Origin: a virus
UHGV virus genome: UHGV-0045958
Length of the DNA: 40,732 nt
Strand: one strand, 5' to 3'
Shown here: positions 1,468 through 37,386 of the stretch, one piece after another
Position numbering within the stretch: position 1 is the first letter of the stretch
How the letters are laid out: each line of letters begins with the position of its first letter
The notes under the pieces: generated by a model
Databases searched by the model: none
Told to the model about the DNA's origin: nothing
The model's input: the letters and a program-made list of their open reading frames with translations, nothing else
Translations under genes and position numbers: made by a program

Positions 1468-3909
1468 TTAAAAATCAGCCTGACTCGGGATCAGTTTTTG
1501 CCAGATAACTGAAACGTATTTTGCCTGGTAACGGGCGTCATCAAGTGCATTATGGCGCTCACCTTCGAATGGAATAGCCGTTCTGGCATCGAAGTCTATG
1601 GCTTTCCCCAGCTCAACGATTGTGCGTACATCGCGATCGTTGTAGTAACGCCACGGGCAGGGGATCCCCTGCCGTTCGTATGAACGGCGCAAAATCGTGT
1701 TGTCGAAGTTGGCTCCATTTCCCCAGACCTGAACAAAAAATTCACCGGAGTTTTCGTCGATAAATTCCCGCAATTGTAACAGTGCATCATCTAACGGGAT
1801 TTCATCGGTCATAATGGCAGATTGCGCTTCGCGTGATTGCTTAAGCCACCATTTAATGGTGTCCCGATCAATGACTCCGCCAGCAGTTTCCAGATCGATA
1901 GTCTTACTAAATTCCGGTCCCATATCTCCGGTTTGCGGATCGAAAAATATTGCACCTATTGAGATGATCGGGGCATCAGGATTTTTTCCCATGGTTTCAA
2001 GGTCGATCATTAGATGGTCACACGTCCTGCTGGTGGATGTGATTTCTTGATGACCGTTCACCTTAATTGAGTGATCTGCCGTCTCGCCAGTTTCATTATC
2101 GCTATCGTGATGCTGATTGCCGCCAGTGTTCTCCTTGTGTGGATGTTCAGCGCCTTCCATTTCCTCCGGATCATCTTCCTGAACTTCAACCTGATACTCT
2201 TCATCGAATGTTTCCTGGTATGTTGCGTCGCCCATCACCGCGCCACAATCAGGGCAGTTGCCGCCGCCGGTCTGACCGCAGGCGGTGCAGACTTTTTCCA
2301 CTTCCTGTTGCGCCACTGGTTCGGATTGTTTCGTTTCTGGCTCGTTTTGTAACGCATTTGGGCTGTTTTGTTCCGCTTTTTGGTCGTTCCGTTCCGATTC
2401 ATGCTGGTTCTGGTTCACAGAATCGCGAGTCTGGATCCCTTTGACCCATTTCGGATCATTAGGGTCGCTAATCCCCTCAACAAATTCACCACGCGATACA
2501 GCAAGTAACTTATCGGCGTCAGGCTGGCTGATATTGGCTGCCTGCATAATTTTGTTTACTTCGTCAGCGGTGACTTTTACTTGGTTAGCGGAACTCACCT
2601 GCGACTGAGCATCCAGCGACTGCGCGTTCTGGCCATGTTCAGTTGTATCCGGTTCCATTGTTTCAGTTGTTGCCTGTTCACCTGCCATTGCGTCAGATGG
2701 TTGTGGTTTTTCTTCTTCTGTTTCACGCTCAGTAACCACCTCGCGGTTAATTTCTTCCAGGATATCTTTTTCCGGCGTATGCCGGGCAGCTGTGAGAGTT
2801 TCCTTGCTGGGGTTCTCGTGATCAGTTTCCGTCAAATAGGCGTTGATATACCCCTGAAGGCGTCCCGGGTAGTGATAAAATTCAGGGTGTGCGCTTCGGA
2901 TAAGTGCAAAAATAGCGGCGCGGGAATAGTCCAGAATACCCGGGGTTGCACGAAGTGCTGCGGACCATTCTTTGAACGGACTTTCTTTGTTCAGGACTAC
3001 TTCTTTTGCGCGACGATAAACGCTGCCCGGAATTTCATAAATATTAAAATCCATCGGAAGTGTGGCTGCTGCAATCTCCACATCCAGTGTGTCGAGGGTG
3101 TGTACTAAATTCGGATTGCGATCGGTTTTGTTCCCACCGCCAGCATTAGCACCGGAAGCCGTGCGGGTGATGCGTGAAACACGATTTCCTTTCATCCACT
3201 CTTTTGTCAGCAGACCCCGATCAGTGTAGTCAGCGTCTAGGTATGCTTCGAAAAAAGCAGTTATTAGTCCCAGGTCTGAATTACCAGGATTAGGGAAAAC
3301 TTTGTCAGTGTCACGAACCAGTTTGTGGAGGTCGCGAATCTCCAGCGAGTCGAGCAGACTGGTTTTATGCGAAATAGCCAGGGCAGTAACAGCCGGTAGT
3401 TCTTCAGCCCGTGCAATGTGTAATGCCTGGAGTTCGTCGCGTGAAACGTGCGTTACTGGTTTTTCGCTGCCGTGTTGAGCAAGCCAACGAATGGGCAGTT
3501 CCTGACCGGAGACAGGCAGAAGCATGCTCTCCTCAATCTCAGTCATGGCTTCGCCGTTGATGTTGGTATTGTCAGTGCTGGCTGGTTTGTCCTGAACAGA
3601 GGGGGAAGGGCCGATAAATGTCATTGTGATGCCATCTTTCCCGCCTTTTTCATAGCGGTTGCAGAATTCAGTATCAAACACGCCTTCTGGCGGAAGGTCG
3701 TCAACAACGGGCAAATTGACGCGGACGGGTTTTTTAAAGTCGTCTTCATCATAATCGTTGTCATCCATTGCGGTAATGCAGCGGGAGATTGCAACAGATA
3801 ATTTTTTTGCTGTAGTCCAGTAAAAACCACCTTTAATTCCTAGGCGTTTTCTTACTTTGTCATTTTTTGCTTCGCAATATAGTGCAAATTCTTCTTTATC
3901 AGTGCTCAT
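1468..3909 (-). CDS. large exonuclease-family protein with C-terminal DnaQ-like (DEDDh) 3'-5' exonuclease domain
   Basis: 813-aa ORF; C-terminal ~180 aa carries DEDDh-type motifs ([11 protein letters not shown] ... [11 protein letters not shown]); central Glu/Gln/Ser-rich low-complexity linker with a CxxC-x9-CxxC zinc ribbon ([16 protein letters not shown]). Confidence 0.8.
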
Positions 3910-4548: not shown

Positions 4549-4606
4549 AAAAAGGGCGGCAGAGCAGTCACGGAGTAAAACTGATACCGCCAAACGTCAC
4601 CAGAAA
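4549..4606 (-). ncRNA. dicF: DicF small RNA (ftsZ-targeting sRNA) with intrinsic terminator
   Basis: Minus-strand sequence 5'-TTTCTGGTGACGTTTGGCGGTATCAGTTTTACTCCGTGACTGCTCTGCCGCCCTTTTT-3' matches the recalled DicF sequence, ends in a GC stem plus U-tract, and lies immediately upstream of dicB. Confidence 0.8.
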
Positions 4607-5890: not shown

Positions 5891-6529
5891 TTAAATATCT
5901 TGTTGAATTTTAAAGCATACGCCCAATATGCAAGATAGATCATCCAGCATAATTGAAGGGTAGCGAGGATTCGTGGGGACTAAAAGAATATCCGGCCCTT
6001 CTATCTCCAGTTTACGAATGACAGGTGTTGTGGTCCCTTTGGGTAAGGCAAGGACAATATTTCCTGGTTGTACGGTTCGATCGGGATCAACAAAAACTGT
6101 TGAACCATTTGGGATGGAAACTCCCCCACCAGATGTTGACATACTGTCACTCTCTAGAACAACTGCAAAGGTATTGACCGGGATTTCTCCGACAAGCTGC
6201 ACACAAGAGGTTATTGAGGAATTTTTCATATAATCACTCCAGCTTGCTGCCTGCTGAAGTGATAGTAGCGGAACCGTTTTTATCGGCGGTAAAGATAGAT
6301 CAAGCGAATCACCTGTATTTAACTCTCCTCCATTAAGAAGCCAATTTTCGTTTACTTTCAATATTTTTGCCAGTGAACTTATGTAACGCGAGGACGGCGC
6401 TCCTCCACCGTTCATCCATTGACTTACGGAGCCTTTTGATGCGCCAGTGCCATTGACAAGGTCTTTGCCTTTCAGGTTTAGCGCATGCATACGTTGGGTT
6501 ATGCGTTCAGATATAGTTTGCTTGCTCAT
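5891..6529 (-). CDS. cI: CI-like repressor (HTH XRE domain + S24 LexA-like peptidase domain)
   Basis: 212 aa; N-terminal HTH and C-terminal S24-like autocleavage domain architecture; divergent from the cro-like gene across a 91-bp intergenic region. Confidence 0.85.
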   Translation of the reverse strand: MSKQTISERITQRMHALNLKGKDLVNGTGASKGSVSQWMNGGGAPSSRYISSLAKILKVNENWLLNGGELNTGDSLDLSLPPIKTVPLLSLQQAASWSDYMKNSSITSCVQLVGEIPVNTFAVVLESDSMSTSGGGVSIPNGSTVFVDPDRTVQPGNIVLALPKGTTTPVIRKLEIEGPDILLVPTNPRYPSIMLDDLSCILGVCFKIQQDI

Positions 6530-6620: not shown

Positions 6621-6863
6621 ATGAAAAAATCAGAAGTATTAGGCTATTTTGGCGGAGTTGTTAAAACAGCCGCAGCTCTAGGAACGTCAAAAACCACAGT
6701 CAGCATGTGGGGGGAAGAGGTTCCGTGGAAATGGGCGTTGCTAATTCAGGCAGTCACTGCCGGGGCGCTCAAATATGAGTTACACATACCGACGGTTGTC
6801 ATTCCCGGTTCTGATCATAATCCGCCTTCTAACCAAGGGGGGATTCATGAAAATCAAGCATGA
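6621..6863 (+). CDS. Cro/YdaS-like HTH regulator
   Basis: ATG 6621 preceded by GGAG; product MKKSEVLGYFGGVVKTAAALGTSKTTVSMWGEEV... is HTH-like and sits divergent to the repressor. Confidence 0.7.
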   Translation: MKKSEVLGYFGGVVKTAAALGTSKTTVSMWGEEVPWKWALLIQAVTAGALKYELHIPTVVIPGSDHNPPSNQGGIHENQA

Positions 6864-7272
6864 ACACATCCGCATGGCGATGAATGCCTGGGCGCATCCG
6901 GACGGCGAAAAAGTACCGGCTGCGAAAATTACCAAAGCGTATTTCGAGCTGGGAATGACGTTCCCGGAACTGTATGACGACAGCCATCCGGAAGCCCTGG
7001 CTCGCAATACCCAGAAAATTTTCCGCTGGGTGGAGAAAGACACCCCTGATGCAGTTGAAAAAATTCAGGCGTTGTTACCAGCGATCGAAAAGGCAATGCC
7101 ACCTTTGCTGGTGGCCAGAATGCGCAGCCACAGTTCAGCTTATTTTCGGGAGTTGGTGGAGACGCGGGAGCGACTGGTGAGAGACGCTGATGATTTTGTC
7201 GCAGTGGCAATCGCCGGTTTCAATCAGATGAACCGTGGTGGCCCGGCAGGAAATGCTGTGGCAGTACATTGA
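6847..7272 (+). CDS. YdaT-like protein (CII-position gene)
   Basis: Starts MKIKHEHI..., as recalled for Rac YdaT; G-rich RBS (AAGGGGGG) upstream of ATG 6847; overlaps the end of the cro-like gene. Confidence 0.7.
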   Translation: MKIKHEHIRMAMNAWAHPDGEKVPAAKITKAYFELGMTFPELYDDSHPEALARNTQKIFRWVEKDTPDAVEKIQALLPAIEKAMPPLLVARMRSHSSAYFRELVETRERLVRDADDFVAVAIAGFNQMNRGGPAGNAVAVH

Positions 7273-7343
7273 CTGACAATAGTCATATCGAATCGCTTCC
7301 GGCAACTCGTGAGTAAAAAGATTCGGTATCAGAAGAGGTGAGT

Positions 7344-8414
7344 ATGGCTAACGCCTGGCTCAGATTATGGCATGACATGCCAAATGACCCTAAGTGGCGA
7401 ACAATTGCCAGGGTGTCAGGGCAGCCAATTGCAACAGTGATGGCAGTGTATATCCACCTCCTGGTGAGCGCGTCACGAAATGTCACGCGAGGTCACATTG
7501 ATGTCACGACAGAAGATTTGGCAAGTGCGCTCGACGTGACAGAAGAGGTAATTGATTCAATTTTGCAGACGATGCAGGGGCGGGTACTTGATGGTGATTT
7601 AATCACTGGATGGGAAAAACGCCAGGTGCTGAAAGAGGACAACGGCAATATTTCGCAAACCGCAAAATCTCCGGCAGAGCGCAAGAGGGCGCAGCGAGAG
7701 AGGGAAAGAAAGCGGGAACAAAATGGCGATTGTCACGGCGAGTCACGAAATGTCACGCACATGTCACGACGAGTCACGACAGATAAAGATACAGATAAAG
7801 ATACAGATCAAGAAGATCAAAACACTATGGTCCATGGCGTAAAAAACGCCACGAACCAGGCAGGGGATGTTCAGACCGTCACTCCTGGCCAGCCCGCAGG
7901 CACGACACCGGAAGCCGATTCAGCGTATGCGCTGAAAGCCGATTCGGGCGCTGTGCAGCAGGTGATGACCGCAAGGCAGGAGCAATCACACCAACTTCAG
8001 CAGCCTGAAGCCGATTCCGCCATTCAGCGGGAAGCCGATCGGGTAGTCCCGGAAAACACCGGGCAGCCTGTGGGACGAGTGGATTATCCTGATGTGTTCG
8101 AACAGGTCTGGCGGGAATACCCGTTGCGTGCCGGGGCAAACCCGAAGAAATCCGCTTTCAGTGCCTGGAAAGCCAGATTACGCGAGGGGGTGCCACCAGA
8201 GGCCATGCTGGATGGCGTGAGGCGTTACGCAAGATACCTTGCGGCTACCGGGAAAACGGGAACGGAATTTGTTCAGCGAGCGACGACGTTTTTTGGACCG
8301 GACCGGAATTTTGAAAACCCCTGGCTGCTCCCGGTAAGCGGCACGAACAACCAGCGTTGTGTGAATCATATTTCTGAACCGGATAACGAAATTCCGCCGG
8401 GCTTCAGGGGGTAA
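7344..8414 (+). CDS. replication initiation protein, O-like
   Basis: O-like N-terminus (WLRLWHDMPNDPKWRTIARVSGQ); the coding sequence carries GTCACG iteron arrays followed by an AT-rich tract, as lambda ori lies inside O. Start taken at ATG 7344 (track start GTG 7338). Confidence 0.8.
   Translation: MANAWLRLWHDMPNDPKWRTIARVSGQPIATVMAVYIHLLVSASRNVTRGHIDVTTEDLASALDVTEEVIDSILQTMQGRVLDGDLITGWEKRQVLKEDNGNISQTAKSPAERKRAQRERERKREQNGDCHGESRNVTHMSRRVTTDKDTDKDTDQEDQNTMVHGVKNATNQAGDVQTVTPGQPAGTTPEADSAYALKADSGAVQQVMTARQEQSHQLQQPEADSAIQREADRVVPENTGQPVGRVDYPDVFEQVWREYPLRAGANPKKSAFSAWKARLREGVPPEAMLDGVRRYARYLAATGKTGTEFVQRATTFFGPDRNFENPWLLPVSGTNNQRCVNHISEPDNEIPPGFRG
7471..7512. repeat. iteron cluster 1 (four GTCAC(G/A) repeats at about 10-bp phasing)
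   Basis: cGTCACGaaatGTCACGcgagGTCACAttgatGTCACGac read directly from the sequence. Confidence 0.55.
7731..7830. repeat. candidate origin of replication: five GTCACG iterons at 10-bp spacing plus AT-rich repeats
   Basis: tGTCACGgcgaGTCACGaaatGTCACGcacatGTCACGacgaGTCACGacag followed by gataaagatacagataaagatacagatcaagaagatcaaaac (GATAAAGATACA x2). Confidence 0.6.
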
Positions 8415-8454
8415 GTGTTAATTTCTGGTCATGAGGTAATTTTCAGGAGGGCTT

Positions 8455-8877
8455 GTGGCAAAAGTTTTTACACAAGAAGAGCGGGAAAAAATTAAAGGAC
8501 AGGTTCTTGAACTCGTACGCCAGAGTGGGCGCGAGACGTTACGACAACTGGAAGCTAAAACTGGGGCAACAAGATATCTGATGAGCGTTCTGGCCAGAGA
8601 GCTGGTTGCCAGTGGCGATGTATACAATTCTGGCTACGGGTTATTCCCGTCTGAACAGGCTCGTAAAGACTGGCAAAATGCCCGCAAAAAATTATCGAGG
8701 GCAAAGCTGAAGAAACCGGTTGTGGTTGATCCGGACCTTATCTGGTCGTTACCTGACGGAGAAATACGTCGCTACGACAGTCGCCTAAACATAATCTGTC
8801 GCGAGTGCCGGAAGAGTGAAGCTATGCAGCGTGTACTGGCTTTCTATCAGGGTAATTTTCAGGAGGCGGTACTGTGA
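8455..8877 (+). CDS. hypothetical protein (possible wHTH regulator or replication accessory)
   Basis: 140-aa ORF with GTG start and AGGAGG 4 nt upstream; basic, helix-rich; no family recognised. Confidence 0.5.
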   Translation: MAKVFTQEEREKIKGQVLELVRQSGRETLRQLEAKTGATRYLMSVLARELVASGDVYNSGYGLFPSEQARKDWQNARKKLSRAKLKKPVVVDPDLIWSLPDGEIRRYDSRLNIICRECRKSEAMQRVLAFYQGNFQEAVL

Positions 8878-8934
8878 GTGAAATTAGCTATCAGGCTTCA
8901 ATTACCGCTGGCATTCGCATCAAAGGAGAGGAGC

Positions 8935-9291
8935 ATGGAAATAAAACCAGAGGATGAGTTAAGCAATATCGTTTTATTTCCGGTAAAAGAGGATGACCCT
9001 CGTAATCAGGTTAATTTTCTTTATGAGCCATCGGAAAGACCATATTGTCATCACGCCTCTGTCCGGGTTGACGAAAAAGAGCGTCAGGTCCGCTGTAAAA
9101 TCTGCGGTGCAGTTGTGGAGCCATTTGACTGGATGCTCTCTGTGGCGAAAAGAGAAACCAGACTGGCAGATGATGTAAGGCTCTTGCGTCAGGAGGAGCG
9201 GGAAAGGCGAAAAAATATAGAAAAGCTAATTCAGATTGAGCGTAACGCGAAAGCGCGGATACGCAGGGCGACAAAATCCAGAACTGAATAA
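8935..9291 (+). CDS. hypothetical zinc-ribbon / coiled-coil protein
   Basis: ATG 8935 with strong RBS (AAAGGAGAGGAG); CHH...CKICG motif and Arg/Glu-rich C-terminus; GTG 8878 is an alternative start. Confidence 0.45.
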   Translation: MEIKPEDELSNIVLFPVKEDDPRNQVNFLYEPSERPYCHHASVRVDEKERQVRCKICGAVVEPFDWMLSVAKRETRLADDVRLLRQEERERRKNIEKLIQIERNAKARIRRATKSRTE

Positions 9292-9383
9292 TTAAATTTA
9301 GCTCTGTTAAAAATTTAATCCTTAACCGGAGGGATTTCTGCACCCTCAGAACATCAGGAGGCCCCCCCCCAAGGGGGGGGGGG

Positions 9384-9448
9384 NNNNNNNNNNNNNNNNN
9401 NNNNNNNNNNNNNNNNNNNNNNNNNNNNNNNNNNNNNNNNNNNNNNNN
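9384..9448. other. assembly gap (65 N) flanked by C/G homopolymer hairpin sequence
   Basis: N-run; flanks gccccccccc aagggggggggggg / gggagggggggg. Confidence 0.95.
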
Positions 9449-9467
9449 GGGAGGGGGGGGTAGTTAA

Positions 9468-10559: not shown

Positions 10560-10741
10560 TAGAATGACTGCGGGTGCTTGAGGCTATCTGTCTCAGGCAT
10601 GAACACCAAAAGGCAGATAGAGAAAAGCCCCAGTTAACATTACGCGTCCTGCAAGACGCTTAACATTAATCTGAGGCTCAATCTATGAACGGCAAATCTA
10701 GGTTAGCCTCTTACGTGCCGAAAGGCAAGGAGAAGCAGGCT
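10560..10741. promoter_or_regulatory. hok mRNA leader with in-frame mok-like upstream start (ATG 10685); expected location of an antisense Sok-like RNA
   Basis: Inferred from hok-family type I toxin-antitoxin organisation; the ORF from 10685 extends hok by 19 codons in frame; no Sok sequence was verified. Confidence 0.3.
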
Positions 10742-10897
10742 ATGAAGCAGCAAAAGGCGATGTTAATCGCCCTGATCGTCATCTGTTTAACCGTCATTGT
10801 GACGGCACTGGTAACGAGGAAAGACCTCTGCGAGGTACGAATCCGAACCGGCCAGACGGAGGTCGCTGTCTTCACAGCTTACGAACCTGAGGAGTAA
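10742..10897 (+). CDS. hokD: Hok/Gef-family type I toxin (HokD/RelF-like)
   Basis: 51-aa product MKQQKAMLIALIVICLTVIVTALVTRKDLCEVRIRTGQTEVAVFTAYEPEE matches recalled HokD (RelF); AAGGAG RBS upstream. Confidence 0.8.
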   Translation: MKQQKAMLIALIVICLTVIVTALVTRKDLCEVRIRTGQTEVAVFTAYEPEE

Positions 10898-11344: not shown

Positions 11345-12403
11345 GTGCGGATATTACTTCGACCTGTTCTGGTACCGGAACTCGGGCTGGTGGTCCTTAG
11401 GCCGGGCCGTGAATCCATGCAAGTATTTCATAACCCTCGAGTGCTGGTGGAGCCTGAACCGAAAAGCATGCGCGGTCTGCCGTCCGGAGTCGTCCCTGCC
11501 GTTCGCCAGCCGCTGGCGGAGGATAAATCATTACTGCCATTTTTCAGCGATGATCGGGTGATTCGTGCTGCTGGCGGCGCTGGGGCACTGTCTGACTGGC
11601 TGTTGCGTCATGTCAAATCCTGCCAGTGGCCTCATGGTGACTATCATCACAGTGAAACCGTCATTCACCGTTACGGTACCGGCGCGATGGTGTTGTGCTG
11701 GCACTGTGACAACCAGTTGCGGGACCAGACATCAGAATCACTCGGGCAACTTGCTCATCAAAACTTGTCAGCATGGATGATTGACGTCATCCGTCACGCA
11801 ATCAGCGGTACGCAGGAGAGGGAGTTATCGCTGGCCGAATTATCCTGGTGGGCGGTCTGCAATCAGGTGGCTGATGCGCTTCCGGAGTCTGTATTGTGTC
11901 GTTCACTGGGATTACCGGTGGAAAAAATCCGCTCCGTATACCGTGAGAGTGACATCGTACCGGGAGAACAGACTGCCACCAGCATACTGAAGCAGCGCAC
12001 AAAAAATATTGCGCTGCCACTTCACGTCCACCAGCAACAGCCCCCACTCCAGGAAAAGACGTTAGTAAGCATCGCCGTTGATCCGGAGTCTCCGGTTCAG
12101 TATCTCCAGCGCCAGAAACCACAACGGGAAGAGATGCCTGTATACACGCGCTGGGTAAAAACGCAGAAATGCATGACGTGCGGTAATCAGGCAGATGATC
12201 CGCATCACATCATTGGTCATGGCCTGGGAGGTATGGGAACAAAGGCTGATGATTTGTTTGTTATTCCGCTGTGCCGTAAATGTCATAACGAACTGCACGC
12301 CGGGGTAAAAGATTTTGAAGAAAAACACGGCAGCCAGCTGTTGTTGCTGATTCGTTTTTTAATGCACGCGAGAAATTCGGGTGTCCTGAAGTGGAAAGCA
12401 TGA
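11345..12403 (+). CDS. DUF968-family protein (YdfU-like)
   Basis: 352 aa with GGAGG RBS before a GTG start; C-terminal Cys/His-rich region (CMTCGNQADDPHHIIGHG...CRKCHNELH); size and position match Qin YdfU. Confidence 0.65.
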   Translation: MRILLRPVLVPELGLVVLRPGRESMQVFHNPRVLVEPEPKSMRGLPSGVVPAVRQPLAEDKSLLPFFSDDRVIRAAGGAGALSDWLLRHVKSCQWPHGDYHHSETVIHRYGTGAMVLCWHCDNQLRDQTSESLGQLAHQNLSAWMIDVIRHAISGTQERELSLAELSWWAVCNQVADALPESVLCRSLGLPVEKIRSVYRESDIVPGEQTATSILKQRTKNIALPLHVHQQQPPLQEKTLVSIAVDPESPVQYLQRQKPQREEMPVYTRWVKTQKCMTCGNQADDPHHIIGHGLGGMGTKADDLFVIPLCRKCHNELHAGVKDFEEKHGSQLLLLIRFLMHARNSGVLKWKA

Positions 12404-13745: not shown

Positions 13746-13821
13746 GGCCCTTTAGCTCAGTGGTGAGAGCGAGCGACTCATAATCGCCAGGTCGCTGGTT
13801 CAAATCCAGCAAGGGCCACCA
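13746..13821 (+). tRNA. ileZ: tRNA-Ile2 (CAU anticodon; ileX/ileZ-like), possibly tRNA-Met
   Basis: 76-nt cloverleaf GGCCCUU..AGCUCAGUGGUGAGAGC..CUCAUAA..GGUCGCUGGUUCAAAUCCAGCAAGGGCCACCA with encoded CCA; very similar to recalled E. coli ileX. Confidence 0.8.
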
Positions 13822-14163: not shown

Positions 14164-14364
14164 ATTGTCTGGCTGCCGGAGAATTTGTTAAAAATTACAT
14201 CGCATGGTGAATCCCCCTCAGCGGCGGGGCATCTGGCAAAGTGTATGATCCAGAGAACATGCAAATTCAGTAGACAGGCTGAATTTACCGGGAGGCCCCT
14301 GGCACCATGCGACAGACAGAAATTAGGCTATACTTCAGCCCCTCTCCGGAGGGGCTTTTCTGTG
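14164..14364 (+). repeat. structured terminator-capped element, copy A (candidate sRNA or late-leader element)
   Basis: Shares with copy B a promoter-like 5' block, the gcatggtg/caccatgc long-range complement, a ccgggaggc block and an identical AGCCCCTC-tccg-GAGGGGCT terminator followed by a T-tract. Confidence 0.5.
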
Positions 14365-14632
14365 CAGGATGTGTCACAGTTTCCTGAATTCTGAGTACTG
14401 TCCTGTTACTCAGGGTGCTATATTTTCTGACGTGATGAAAGTCTGCCGGAAGGCGGAACGTATCGGAAATGACCCAGTAGAGAAAACGTTGACTCAGATA
14501 CCGATGCTGAGTTACCGGGAAACCGGCATCACATGACCGCTATCCTTCCAGGCTCGCTCCGGCGGGCCTTTTTACTGCAGAAAACAGTTTTCCCGTAAAA
14601 TGCCACGTTGCTCATAATTCAGGCTGGCGATT

Positions 14633-14830
14633 ATTGTCTGGCCGGCGGGAAGTTTGTTAAAAAATTTCGCATGGTGAATCCCCCTGTGCGGAGGGGTAAT
14701 CAGCGAGTAGGTATATGGGATAATCGCGGATTCAGGTGCTGGTACTGAATTCACCGGGAGGCACCCGGCACCATGCAATGGCACATAGCGCCACTCTCCA
14801 GCCCCTCTCCGGAGGGGCTGTTTATATTGA
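14633..14830 (+). repeat. structured terminator-capped element, copy B
   Basis: Imperfect duplicate of copy A with the same terminal hairpin (14800-14819). Confidence 0.5.
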
Positions 14831-25937: not shown

Positions 25938-25959
25938 NNNNNNNNNNNNNNNNNNNNNN
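25938..25959. other. assembly gap (22 N) inside a C/G/T homopolymer hairpin region
   Basis: N-run; flanks ccccgccggggggggg ttttttttttt / cccccccccc ggggggggggg ttttttttt. Confidence 0.95.
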
Positions 25960-36571: not shown

Positions 36572-36627
36572 NNNNNNNNNNNNNNNNNNNNNNNNNNNNN
36601 NNNNNNNNNNNNNNNNNNNNNNNNNNN
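36572..36627. other. assembly gap (56 N) splitting a terminator hairpin (duplicated flank cagaaatg)
   Basis: Flanks ggcgccagaaatg / cagaaatggcgcctttttt; collapsing the duplication restores GGCGCC-agaaat-GGCGCC plus a T-tract. Confidence 0.95.
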
Positions 36628-37314: not shown

Positions 37315-37386
37315 NNNNNNNNNNNNNNNNNNNNNNNNNNNNNNNNNNNNNNNNNNNNNNNNNNNNNNNNNNNNNNNNNNNNNNNN
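37315..37386. other. assembly gap (72 N) splitting a terminator hairpin (duplicated flank ccggttcaggcg)
   Basis: Flanks gcccgccggttcaggcg / ccggttcaggcgggctttttt; collapsing the duplication restores GCCCGCC-ggttca-GGCGGGC plus a T-tract. Confidence 0.95.

Follow-up and report, generated by a model that had tools for sequence, protein, structure and literature searches.

A DnaT-like tail on the phage initiator as a candidate link between an initiator-only lambdoid replication module and host DnaB-DnaC

The replication module of the virus genome UHGV-0045958 encodes an O-like initiator followed by two small genes, ORF1 and ORF2, and no helicase loader. The feature under study, positions 8455-9291, was analysed within a window of 40,732 nt, the whole stretch of DNA available. 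The module is best explained as an 'initiator-only' lambdoid replication module. We consider it probable on balance that a DnaT-like tail at the C-terminus of the initiator recruits the host DnaB-DnaC, with ORF1 being of the Ren type and ORF2 dispensable. In the proposed mechanism the origin-bound initiator would capture the host DnaB6-DnaC6, and DnaB would be loaded at the unwound AT-rich region of the origin. The tail would serve as the docking peptide for the DnaC-type loader-DnaB complex, and ORF1 would close the replication module while standing outside helicase loading. The loader-less architecture is already on record; what is new is its likely basis in mimicry of the DnaT tail, together with a rule that relates tail type to loader type.

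Gene order of the module and search for a helicase loader

The window is a Qin/Rac-like lambdoid E. coli prophage. Its first genes are, in this order, integrase, excisionase, RecE without RecT and DicB/DicF. A cI-like repressor (5891-6529, minus strand), a Cro/DicC-like gene ending at 6863 and a YdaT/CII-like gene (6847-7272) precede the O-like gene, and ORF1 and ORF2 are followed by small nin-type ORFs, hok/sok, YdfU (DUF968), RusA and Q. Lysis genes and HK97-like structural genes come after Q. RecE (exonuclease VIII; 813 aa, 1468-3909, minus strand) has no adjoining RecT-like annealing protein, an arrangement that corresponds to the 'Tritos-type' recombination module, a class tied to recombination-dependent growth in a Chi-site study of 2025. 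The YdfU-like DUF968 protein (11345-12403, plus strand), a conserved member of the nin region, matches PF06147 with 212 bits and has a C-terminal HNH-type nuclease signature (HNHc_6). Rfam matches comprise the DicF sRNA (4554-4605, minus strand) and, on the plus strand, the sok antitoxin RNA (10572-10747; hok-like ORF at 10685-10897), a tRNA (13746-13818) and two tandem copies of the sRNA STnc100 located 3' of Q (14172-14365 and 14641-14829).

Positions 7300-9340 are 100% identical to the induced phages vB_EcoS-640R1 and 813R8, and the module was present at a coverage of at least 80% in 680 of 5426 complete E. coli genomes. Four N runs in the window (9384-9448, 25938-25959, 36572-36627 and 37315-37386) look like assembly or masking artefacts rather than biology. 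Around the first of them, homopolymer C/G runs and 65 N (9355-9465, no strand) stand in for a short GC hairpin, GGCCGCCCGAAAGGGCGG, located 3' of ORF2. In the phage record ON470612, which is 100% identical, the sequence runs on through 9384-9448, and its alignment, with only the short hairpin at this place, excludes a gene hidden in the N run.

The O-like gene (7344-8414) is followed by ORF1 (8455-8877) and ORF2 (8935 or 8878 to 9291). The initial annotation had described two small ORFs of 140 and about 118 aa after the O-like gene, and no P-like or DnaC-like ORF. Both ORFs were found at their places, and the lack of a loader was borne out by tblastn, a Walker A scan and profile scans of the early region. 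The loader families sought were DnaC/IstB AAA+ proteins, lambda P (PF06992) and DnaB-type helicases. A tblastn search for DnaC and P across the window, as the initial annotation had proposed, was run in six frames with E. coli DnaC, lambda P and Rac YdaV as queries and returned chance fragments only, the best of them a 19-aa stretch within the tail-gene region with an E-value of 0.008. The Walker A motif [AG]xxxxGK[ST] is absent from the stop-to-stop ORFs of at least 80 aa on both strands of the window, and among the early-region ORFs no P, DnaC/IstB or DnaB family came up in Pfam, PHROG or NCBIfam. ORF1 and ORF2 gave no loader or helicase match in Pfam, PHROG, NCBIfam or PADLOC. A defence or anti-defence role found no PADLOC match for the O-like protein, ORF1 or ORF2.

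No DnaC-, P- or YdaV-like sequence occurs in the complete genomes of Tritos and LLS, both of which form plaques, and the loader-less module is present in identical form in induced virions. The loader-less form therefore works. LLS, the published prototype of the O-only group, and 33 other lambdoid phages (34/314) were reported to encode only an O homologue, their replication being 'not yet understood' (Genome Res 2025, PMC12315714); the accessible text of that study gives no mechanism for O-only replication and does not mention the tail. The window module resembles that of LLS in its single O-type gene, in the lack of a helicase or loader and in a DnaT-like tail on the O protein, which in LLS (PQ299149, 34213-35067) ends with ...VDTKIPEGFRG. 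In contrast to the window protein, LLS O has other N- and C-domains (HTH_36-like by eye), and the next gene encodes a DNA methyltransferase, not a DUF977 protein. The Eru replication types of Stx phages (PMC8044961) were considered as well and are different modules, built on helicase genes.

The two genes downstream of the initiator

ORF1 (8455-8877, plus strand) encodes 140 aa and has a GTG start with AGGAGG 5 nt upstream. It belongs to the Ren family/DUF977 ('LygF'), as it matches PF06163 (DUF977) with 102 bits (cut-off 22) and phrog_142, 'Ren-like exclusion protein', with an E-value of 9e-48 over residues 1-139. Lambda Ren also matches phrog_142 (E 1.6e-41) and gave no match to PF06163 at E ≤ 0.1. 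In BLASTP, ORF1 and Ren share 12 identities over 20 residues (E 4e-7), including a common C-terminal motif (NIICRECRKSEAMQRVLAFY vs NLVFKECRQSAAMKRVLAVY); the conserved motif at the C-terminus of ORF1 is CRECRKSEAMQRVLAFY. Weak helix-turn-helix profile matches and the resemblance to Ren suggest that the N-terminus is apparently a winged helix-turn-helix. An identification of ORF1 with Rac YdaW was dropped, as Pfam assigns YdaW to DUF1627 and not to DUF977.

Genes of the Ren family occur in the orders O-P-ren in lambda, initiator-DnaC-like-DUF1627-DUF977 in long modules and initiator-DUF977 in the window. They end the replication module with or without a loader, and ORF1 is therefore regarded as a homologue of Ren in both position and sequence and not as a loader. 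Lambda ren is not known to be required for replication, which counts against ORF1 as a loader substitute. The initial annotation had reckoned with the case that both proteins match characterised nin-region families unrelated to replication; this proved right for ORF1, through the Ren family, and not for ORF2.

ORF2 (118 aa, 8935-9291, plus strand) has an ATG start with GGAGAGGAG upstream, belongs to phrog_1621 and combines a zinc-ribbon-like CxH...CxxC motif with a basic helical tail. The alternative start, GTG at 8878, would yield 137 aa and is the one annotated in ON470612. The ATG at 8935 is more likely; the PHROG match begins at residue 20 of the 137-aa form. The protein scored 21.2 bits against Zn_Ribbon_TF (cut-off 29), with CHH...CKIC seen in the sequence. 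Its 150 homologues are all from Enterobacterales and all 'hypothetical', and phrog_1621 has no function label. Among 80 near-identical modules, about 23 have ORF2 after DUF977. Tritos lacks ORF2, and LLS lacks both ORF1 and ORF2. Homologues of ORF2 were also found beside Ea22-type genes in Stx phages. We infer that ORF2 is a mobile, dispensable accessory gene.

These distributions bear on a reading in which ORF1, ORF2 or both are non-homologous helicase-loading or accessory factors that replace P or DnaC. The two genes occupy the location of P in lambda, a DUF977 gene lies directly after the initiator in 80/80 near-identical loci, and the N-terminus of ORF1, apparently a winged helix, may bind DNA. 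However, DUF977 is also found in modules that already possess a DnaC-like loader, just as Ren follows P, and the occurrence of ORF2, limited to part of the modules and extending to the Ea22 regions of Stx phages, also counts against this reading. Since plaque-forming O-only phages lack ORF2 (Tritos) or both genes (LLS), neither is expected to be a loader substitute, and we judge this reading very improbable. The suggestion in the initial annotation of an accessory role in replication for the small proteins is likewise unsupported, given the Ren-family membership of ORF1, its co-occurrence with DnaC-like loaders and the limited incidence of ORF2.

The initiator, its internal origin and its C-terminal tail

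The O-like initiator (356 aa, 7344-8414, plus strand) was identified as a 'phage replisome organizer' from its PHROG match, cluster name, homologue alignment and AF2 model. The gene starts at 7338 or 7344, and the ATG at 7344 agrees with the MANAWL start of the homologues. The protein matches phrog_3729, 'replication initiation protein', from end to end (E 7e-257), and 'phage replisome organizer' is the NCBI name of its 90% cluster. It gave no match to PF04492 (Phage_rep_O) at E ≤ 0.1, a profile against which lambda O scores 123 bits, and with TIGR01714 (phage_rep_org_N) it reached 15.5 bits (E 0.015), below the cut-off of 49.8. The protein consists of an N-terminal DNA-binding domain, an acidic low-complexity linker that holds the origin, a conserved helical C-domain and the DnaT-like tail.

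In the homologue alignment one and the same linker and C-terminal region occurs with at least three unrelated N-domains. This points to a lambda-O-like logic, in which the half that recognises the origin varies and the effector half is conserved. The helical C-domain (aa ~245-330, 8076-8333, plus strand) is assigned to no Pfam family and belongs to a very large family of 4083 representative clusters at E ≤ 1e-3. Its AF2 model (mean pLDDT 80.7) shows three helices and a short one, followed by a disordered tail. The full-length AF2 model had a mean pLDDT of 51 and was not used for a fold search because this value is too low. Kinship of the C-domain to the CTD of DnaT, the C-domain of YdaU or that of lambda O is unsupported, with hhalign probabilities of 21%, 18% and 0.1%, respectively.

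The origin lies within the initiator gene. A first iteron cluster (7472-7541, plus strand) has four direct GTCACR copies at spacings of 10, 10 and 11 bp and an inverted copy at 7535, and a second (7732-7779, plus strand) has five direct GTCACG copies spaced by 10, 10, 11 and 10 bp. In total ten GTCACR sites fall within 331 bp of the O-like gene, where the rest of the window would predict 0.22, and the 10-11 bp spacing places the repeats in helical phase. Adjoining the second cluster is an AT-rich 12-bp tandem repeat, ACAGATAAAGAT, present three times (7779-7814, plus strand) with up to 70% AT, which is the probable DNA-unwinding element of the origin. The same repeat codes for the acidic TDKDTDKDTD linker. 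Among homologues (302-374 aa variants) the copy number of the TDKD/TDTD repeat and the length of the adjoining linker vary (alignment columns ~230-250), and origin repeats and linker length co-vary.

Iterons and an AT-rich region within the initiator gene are the functional hallmark of the lambda O family, and both are present here. The resemblance to lambda O/P extends to the position of the module after cI, cro and cII and before a Ren-family gene, to the two-domain initiator with the origin in its own coding sequence (cf. the ori-lambda annotation) and to the mosaic boundary at the linker. Unlike in lambda, the N-domain is not Phage_rep_O, a P gene is lacking and the C-terminal tail is DnaT-like, whereas the initiator upstream of P ends with '...LDLTNTDWIYGVDL'.

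The DnaT-like tail, QRCVNHISEPDNEIPPGFRG, comprises the last ~20 residues of the initiator (…ISEPDNEIPPGFRG; 8352-8411, plus strand) and is predicted to be disordered. It matches DnaT chains in the PDB (6aep, E 0.003; 2ru8, E 0.027; also 9zbt_D) and positions 156-179 of NCBIfam NF002770 (E 7e-4). A tblastn search of the window with DnaT residues 155-179 gave an E-value of 7e-6 and 60% identity over 25 aa. The extreme C-terminal tail ...SEPDxxIPPGFRG, a criterion for DnaT, is thus found on the O-like protein. This likeness accounts for related phage genes being labelled 'primosomal protein I'. YdaU, the Rac initiator encoded upstream of the DnaC-like YdaV, has the same tail, ...VSLPDSAIPPGFRG.

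In the E. coli dnaT-dnaC operon, the motif likewise lies directly upstream of a DnaC gene, and the C-terminal 20 residues of DnaT and the O-like protein are near-identical. The likeness ends there. The phmmer and NCBIfam matches to DnaT are confined to O-like residues 333-356, with no trace of the N-terminal oligomerisation/PriB-binding domain, and the three-helix ssDNA-binding CTD of DnaT (residues ~89-153; PF17948) was not detected by Pfam or hhalign. The two proteins also differ in targeting, which relies on sequence-specific iterons for the O-like protein and on PriA/PriB for DnaT.

In the literature on DnaT and the preprimosome we found no function for the C-terminal tail of DnaT. The cryo-EM structures of the preprimosome used DnaT 84-153, and the tail (154-179) is outside the models, which leaves it free for a role in recruiting DnaB/DnaC. 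The authors of these structures state that the way DnaB/DnaC is recruited is not understood. They favour the N-terminal domain of DnaT as the recruiter, which counts against a role of the tail.

Tail type and loader type among phages

The tail was surveyed in IMG/VR with the pattern PDxxIPxGFRG-stop, which gave 120 loci, all of them ends of initiator-type ORFs. The next gene was DnaC-like in 66 loci, Ren/DUF977-like in 39, of another type in 10 and P-like in none, while 5 had no flank; these counts and those of the reverse test below take no account of phylogeny, and many loci are near-identical. About 49 of the 120 tail-bearing initiators have no loader next to them. The ten other next genes, which include a RuvC-like protein and a methylase, both identified by eye, could encode loaders of another kind. 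The tail occurs on at least five unrelated types of DNA-binding N-domain, namely the O-like one, two others, DUF1376/YdaU and that of lambda O. In the reverse test, 49 of 50 diverse DnaC-like loader genes had a tail-bearing initiator upstream, and none of 159 P-type loaders was preceded by a DnaT-like tail. The initiators upstream of P-type loaders end with '…LDCPDW.DD' or '…LDLTNTDWIYGVDL'.

The same pairing is seen among the relatives of the window protein. Full-length homologues of 45-52% identity that carry the tail have an IstB/DnaC-like AAA+ gene next, abutting or overlapping. In a Serratia homologue with a different tail (…LDCQEWQS…FDDE) the next gene is lambda-P-like, as it also is in a relative whose N-domain is the same but which has a true DnaT CTD and ends with …LDCPDWCDD. 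A further relative (L178) matches the window at 96% identity on both flanks, 7000-8418 and 8748-9363. The stretch between them, from the initiator stop to the point corresponding to position 8748, holds genes for a 248-aa DnaC-like protein and a DUF1627 protein as well as the 5' part of a DUF977 gene. This DnaC insertion at the junction indicates that the window module is the short form of one that exists with its own DnaC. The Rac ydaU-ydaV and long lambdoid modules (initiator, DnaC-like, DUF1627, DUF977) share the C-terminal tail and the terminal DUF977 gene with the window. In contrast to them, the window has no DnaC paralogue and no DUF1627 gene, and its N-domain is of the replisome-organizer type rather than DUF1376.

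Along their full length, the DnaC-like loaders of phages share 45-50% identity with E. coli DnaC. Because the tail tracks DnaC-type loaders and the phage has no loader of its own, host DnaC-DnaB is most likely borrowed. The initial annotation had suggested, as its other alternative, that the O-like C-terminus recruits host factors directly; the association of the tail with DnaC-type loaders and the similarity of these loaders to host DnaC favour this proposal at the level of sequence. A contact between tail and DnaC is suggested by gene order, and the partner might instead be DnaB, PriA, PriB or another protein. As the tail-coding end and the DnaC-like gene are adjacent, mosaic co-inheritance without functional coupling could also give part of the association.

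The origin of the motif in DnaT, a partner of PriA and PriB, raises the alternative that the initiator acts as a site-specific DnaT, its tail and acidic linker plugging into the PriA-PriB primosome. Loading would then depend on PriA, without direct contact to DnaC or DnaB. This would agree with the complete DnaT CTD (PF17948) on some tail-bearing phage initiators and with the acidic TDKDTDKDTDQED linker of the O-like protein, since the acidic linker of DnaT binds PriB. In the cryo-EM structures, however, PriA is docked through the DnaT 84-153 bundle and not through the tail, and the O-like protein lacks that bundle. Moreover, the alternative offers no reason for the association of the tail with DnaC-type loaders or for its absence where the loader is of the P type. 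We regard it as unlikely.

Loading might also not be directed to the origin at all. The initiator would only open or mark the origin or start one round, and at D-loops formed by RecE or RecBCD-Chi the host PriA-PriB-DnaT-DnaC pathway would load DnaB. The window contains RecE without RecT, a 'Tritos-type' Rec module, and the 2025 study found LLS, an O-only phage, to be Chi-rich and to show better growth when RecBCD is present. Nevertheless, theta initiation would still require the loading of a first helicase, and neither the conserved, loader-type-specific tail nor the full origin of iterons and AT-rich region is accounted for. Purely recombination-based loading is, in our assessment, quite improbable, and recruitment of host DnaB-DnaC through the tail is retained as the preferred explanation.

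Initiators partnered with P (L006, L091, L214-L373) have an acidic Trp tail, '...LDCPDW[CRH]DD' or '...LDCQEWQS...FDDE', or the lambda O end given above. Further tail classes among relatives of the C-domain read '...LPDWLKD' and '...HGFxxRDY...'; for the tail classes P0179 and P0134 the contigs are too short to show the neighbouring genes. A scan of genome contigs with a single protein as the query yielded one close relative and one spurious match. There are hints of a general 'tail code' that pairs initiators with loader types. A possible exception to a strict rule linking tail and DnaC is DopC of Cellvibrionales/Oceanospirillales, in which HHpred revealed a 'DnaT_C' motif in combination with an O-like HTH N-terminus (Brezellec et al. 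2017, PMC5509034). DopC thus shares the O-like N-terminus and the DnaT-derived motif with the window protein. It differs in being encoded by a domesticated chromosomal gene without iterons and in being paired with the P-like DopE, not with DnaC (PMC5509034).

In three IMG/VR proteins (L149, L180 and L212) a DNA-binding N-domain is joined to an entire DnaT CTD and the tail. Downstream of their genes lies no loader, but a gene for a RuvC-like protein (as judged by eye) or unnamed genes. They look like origin-targeted DnaT proteins, in keeping with the idea of dnaT-dnaC as an initiator-loader pair domesticated from a phage.

We tentatively propose, as a real possibility, that the tail shared by DnaT and the phage initiators is a portable docking peptide for the DnaC-family loader-DnaB complex, and that the acidic 'LD..DW' tail serves P-type loaders in the same way. 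If this is true, the O-only lambdoid phages (Tritos, LLS and the phage of the window) would mimic DnaT to capture host DnaB-DnaC. For annotation, the tail type of an initiator would predict the loader used and the dependence on host DnaC. The O-only replication described as 'not yet understood' (PMC12315714) becomes directly testable, the candidate link being one short, mutable peptide. The module concerned is very common, with its 680 of 5426 complete E. coli genomes, and belongs to inducible prophages.
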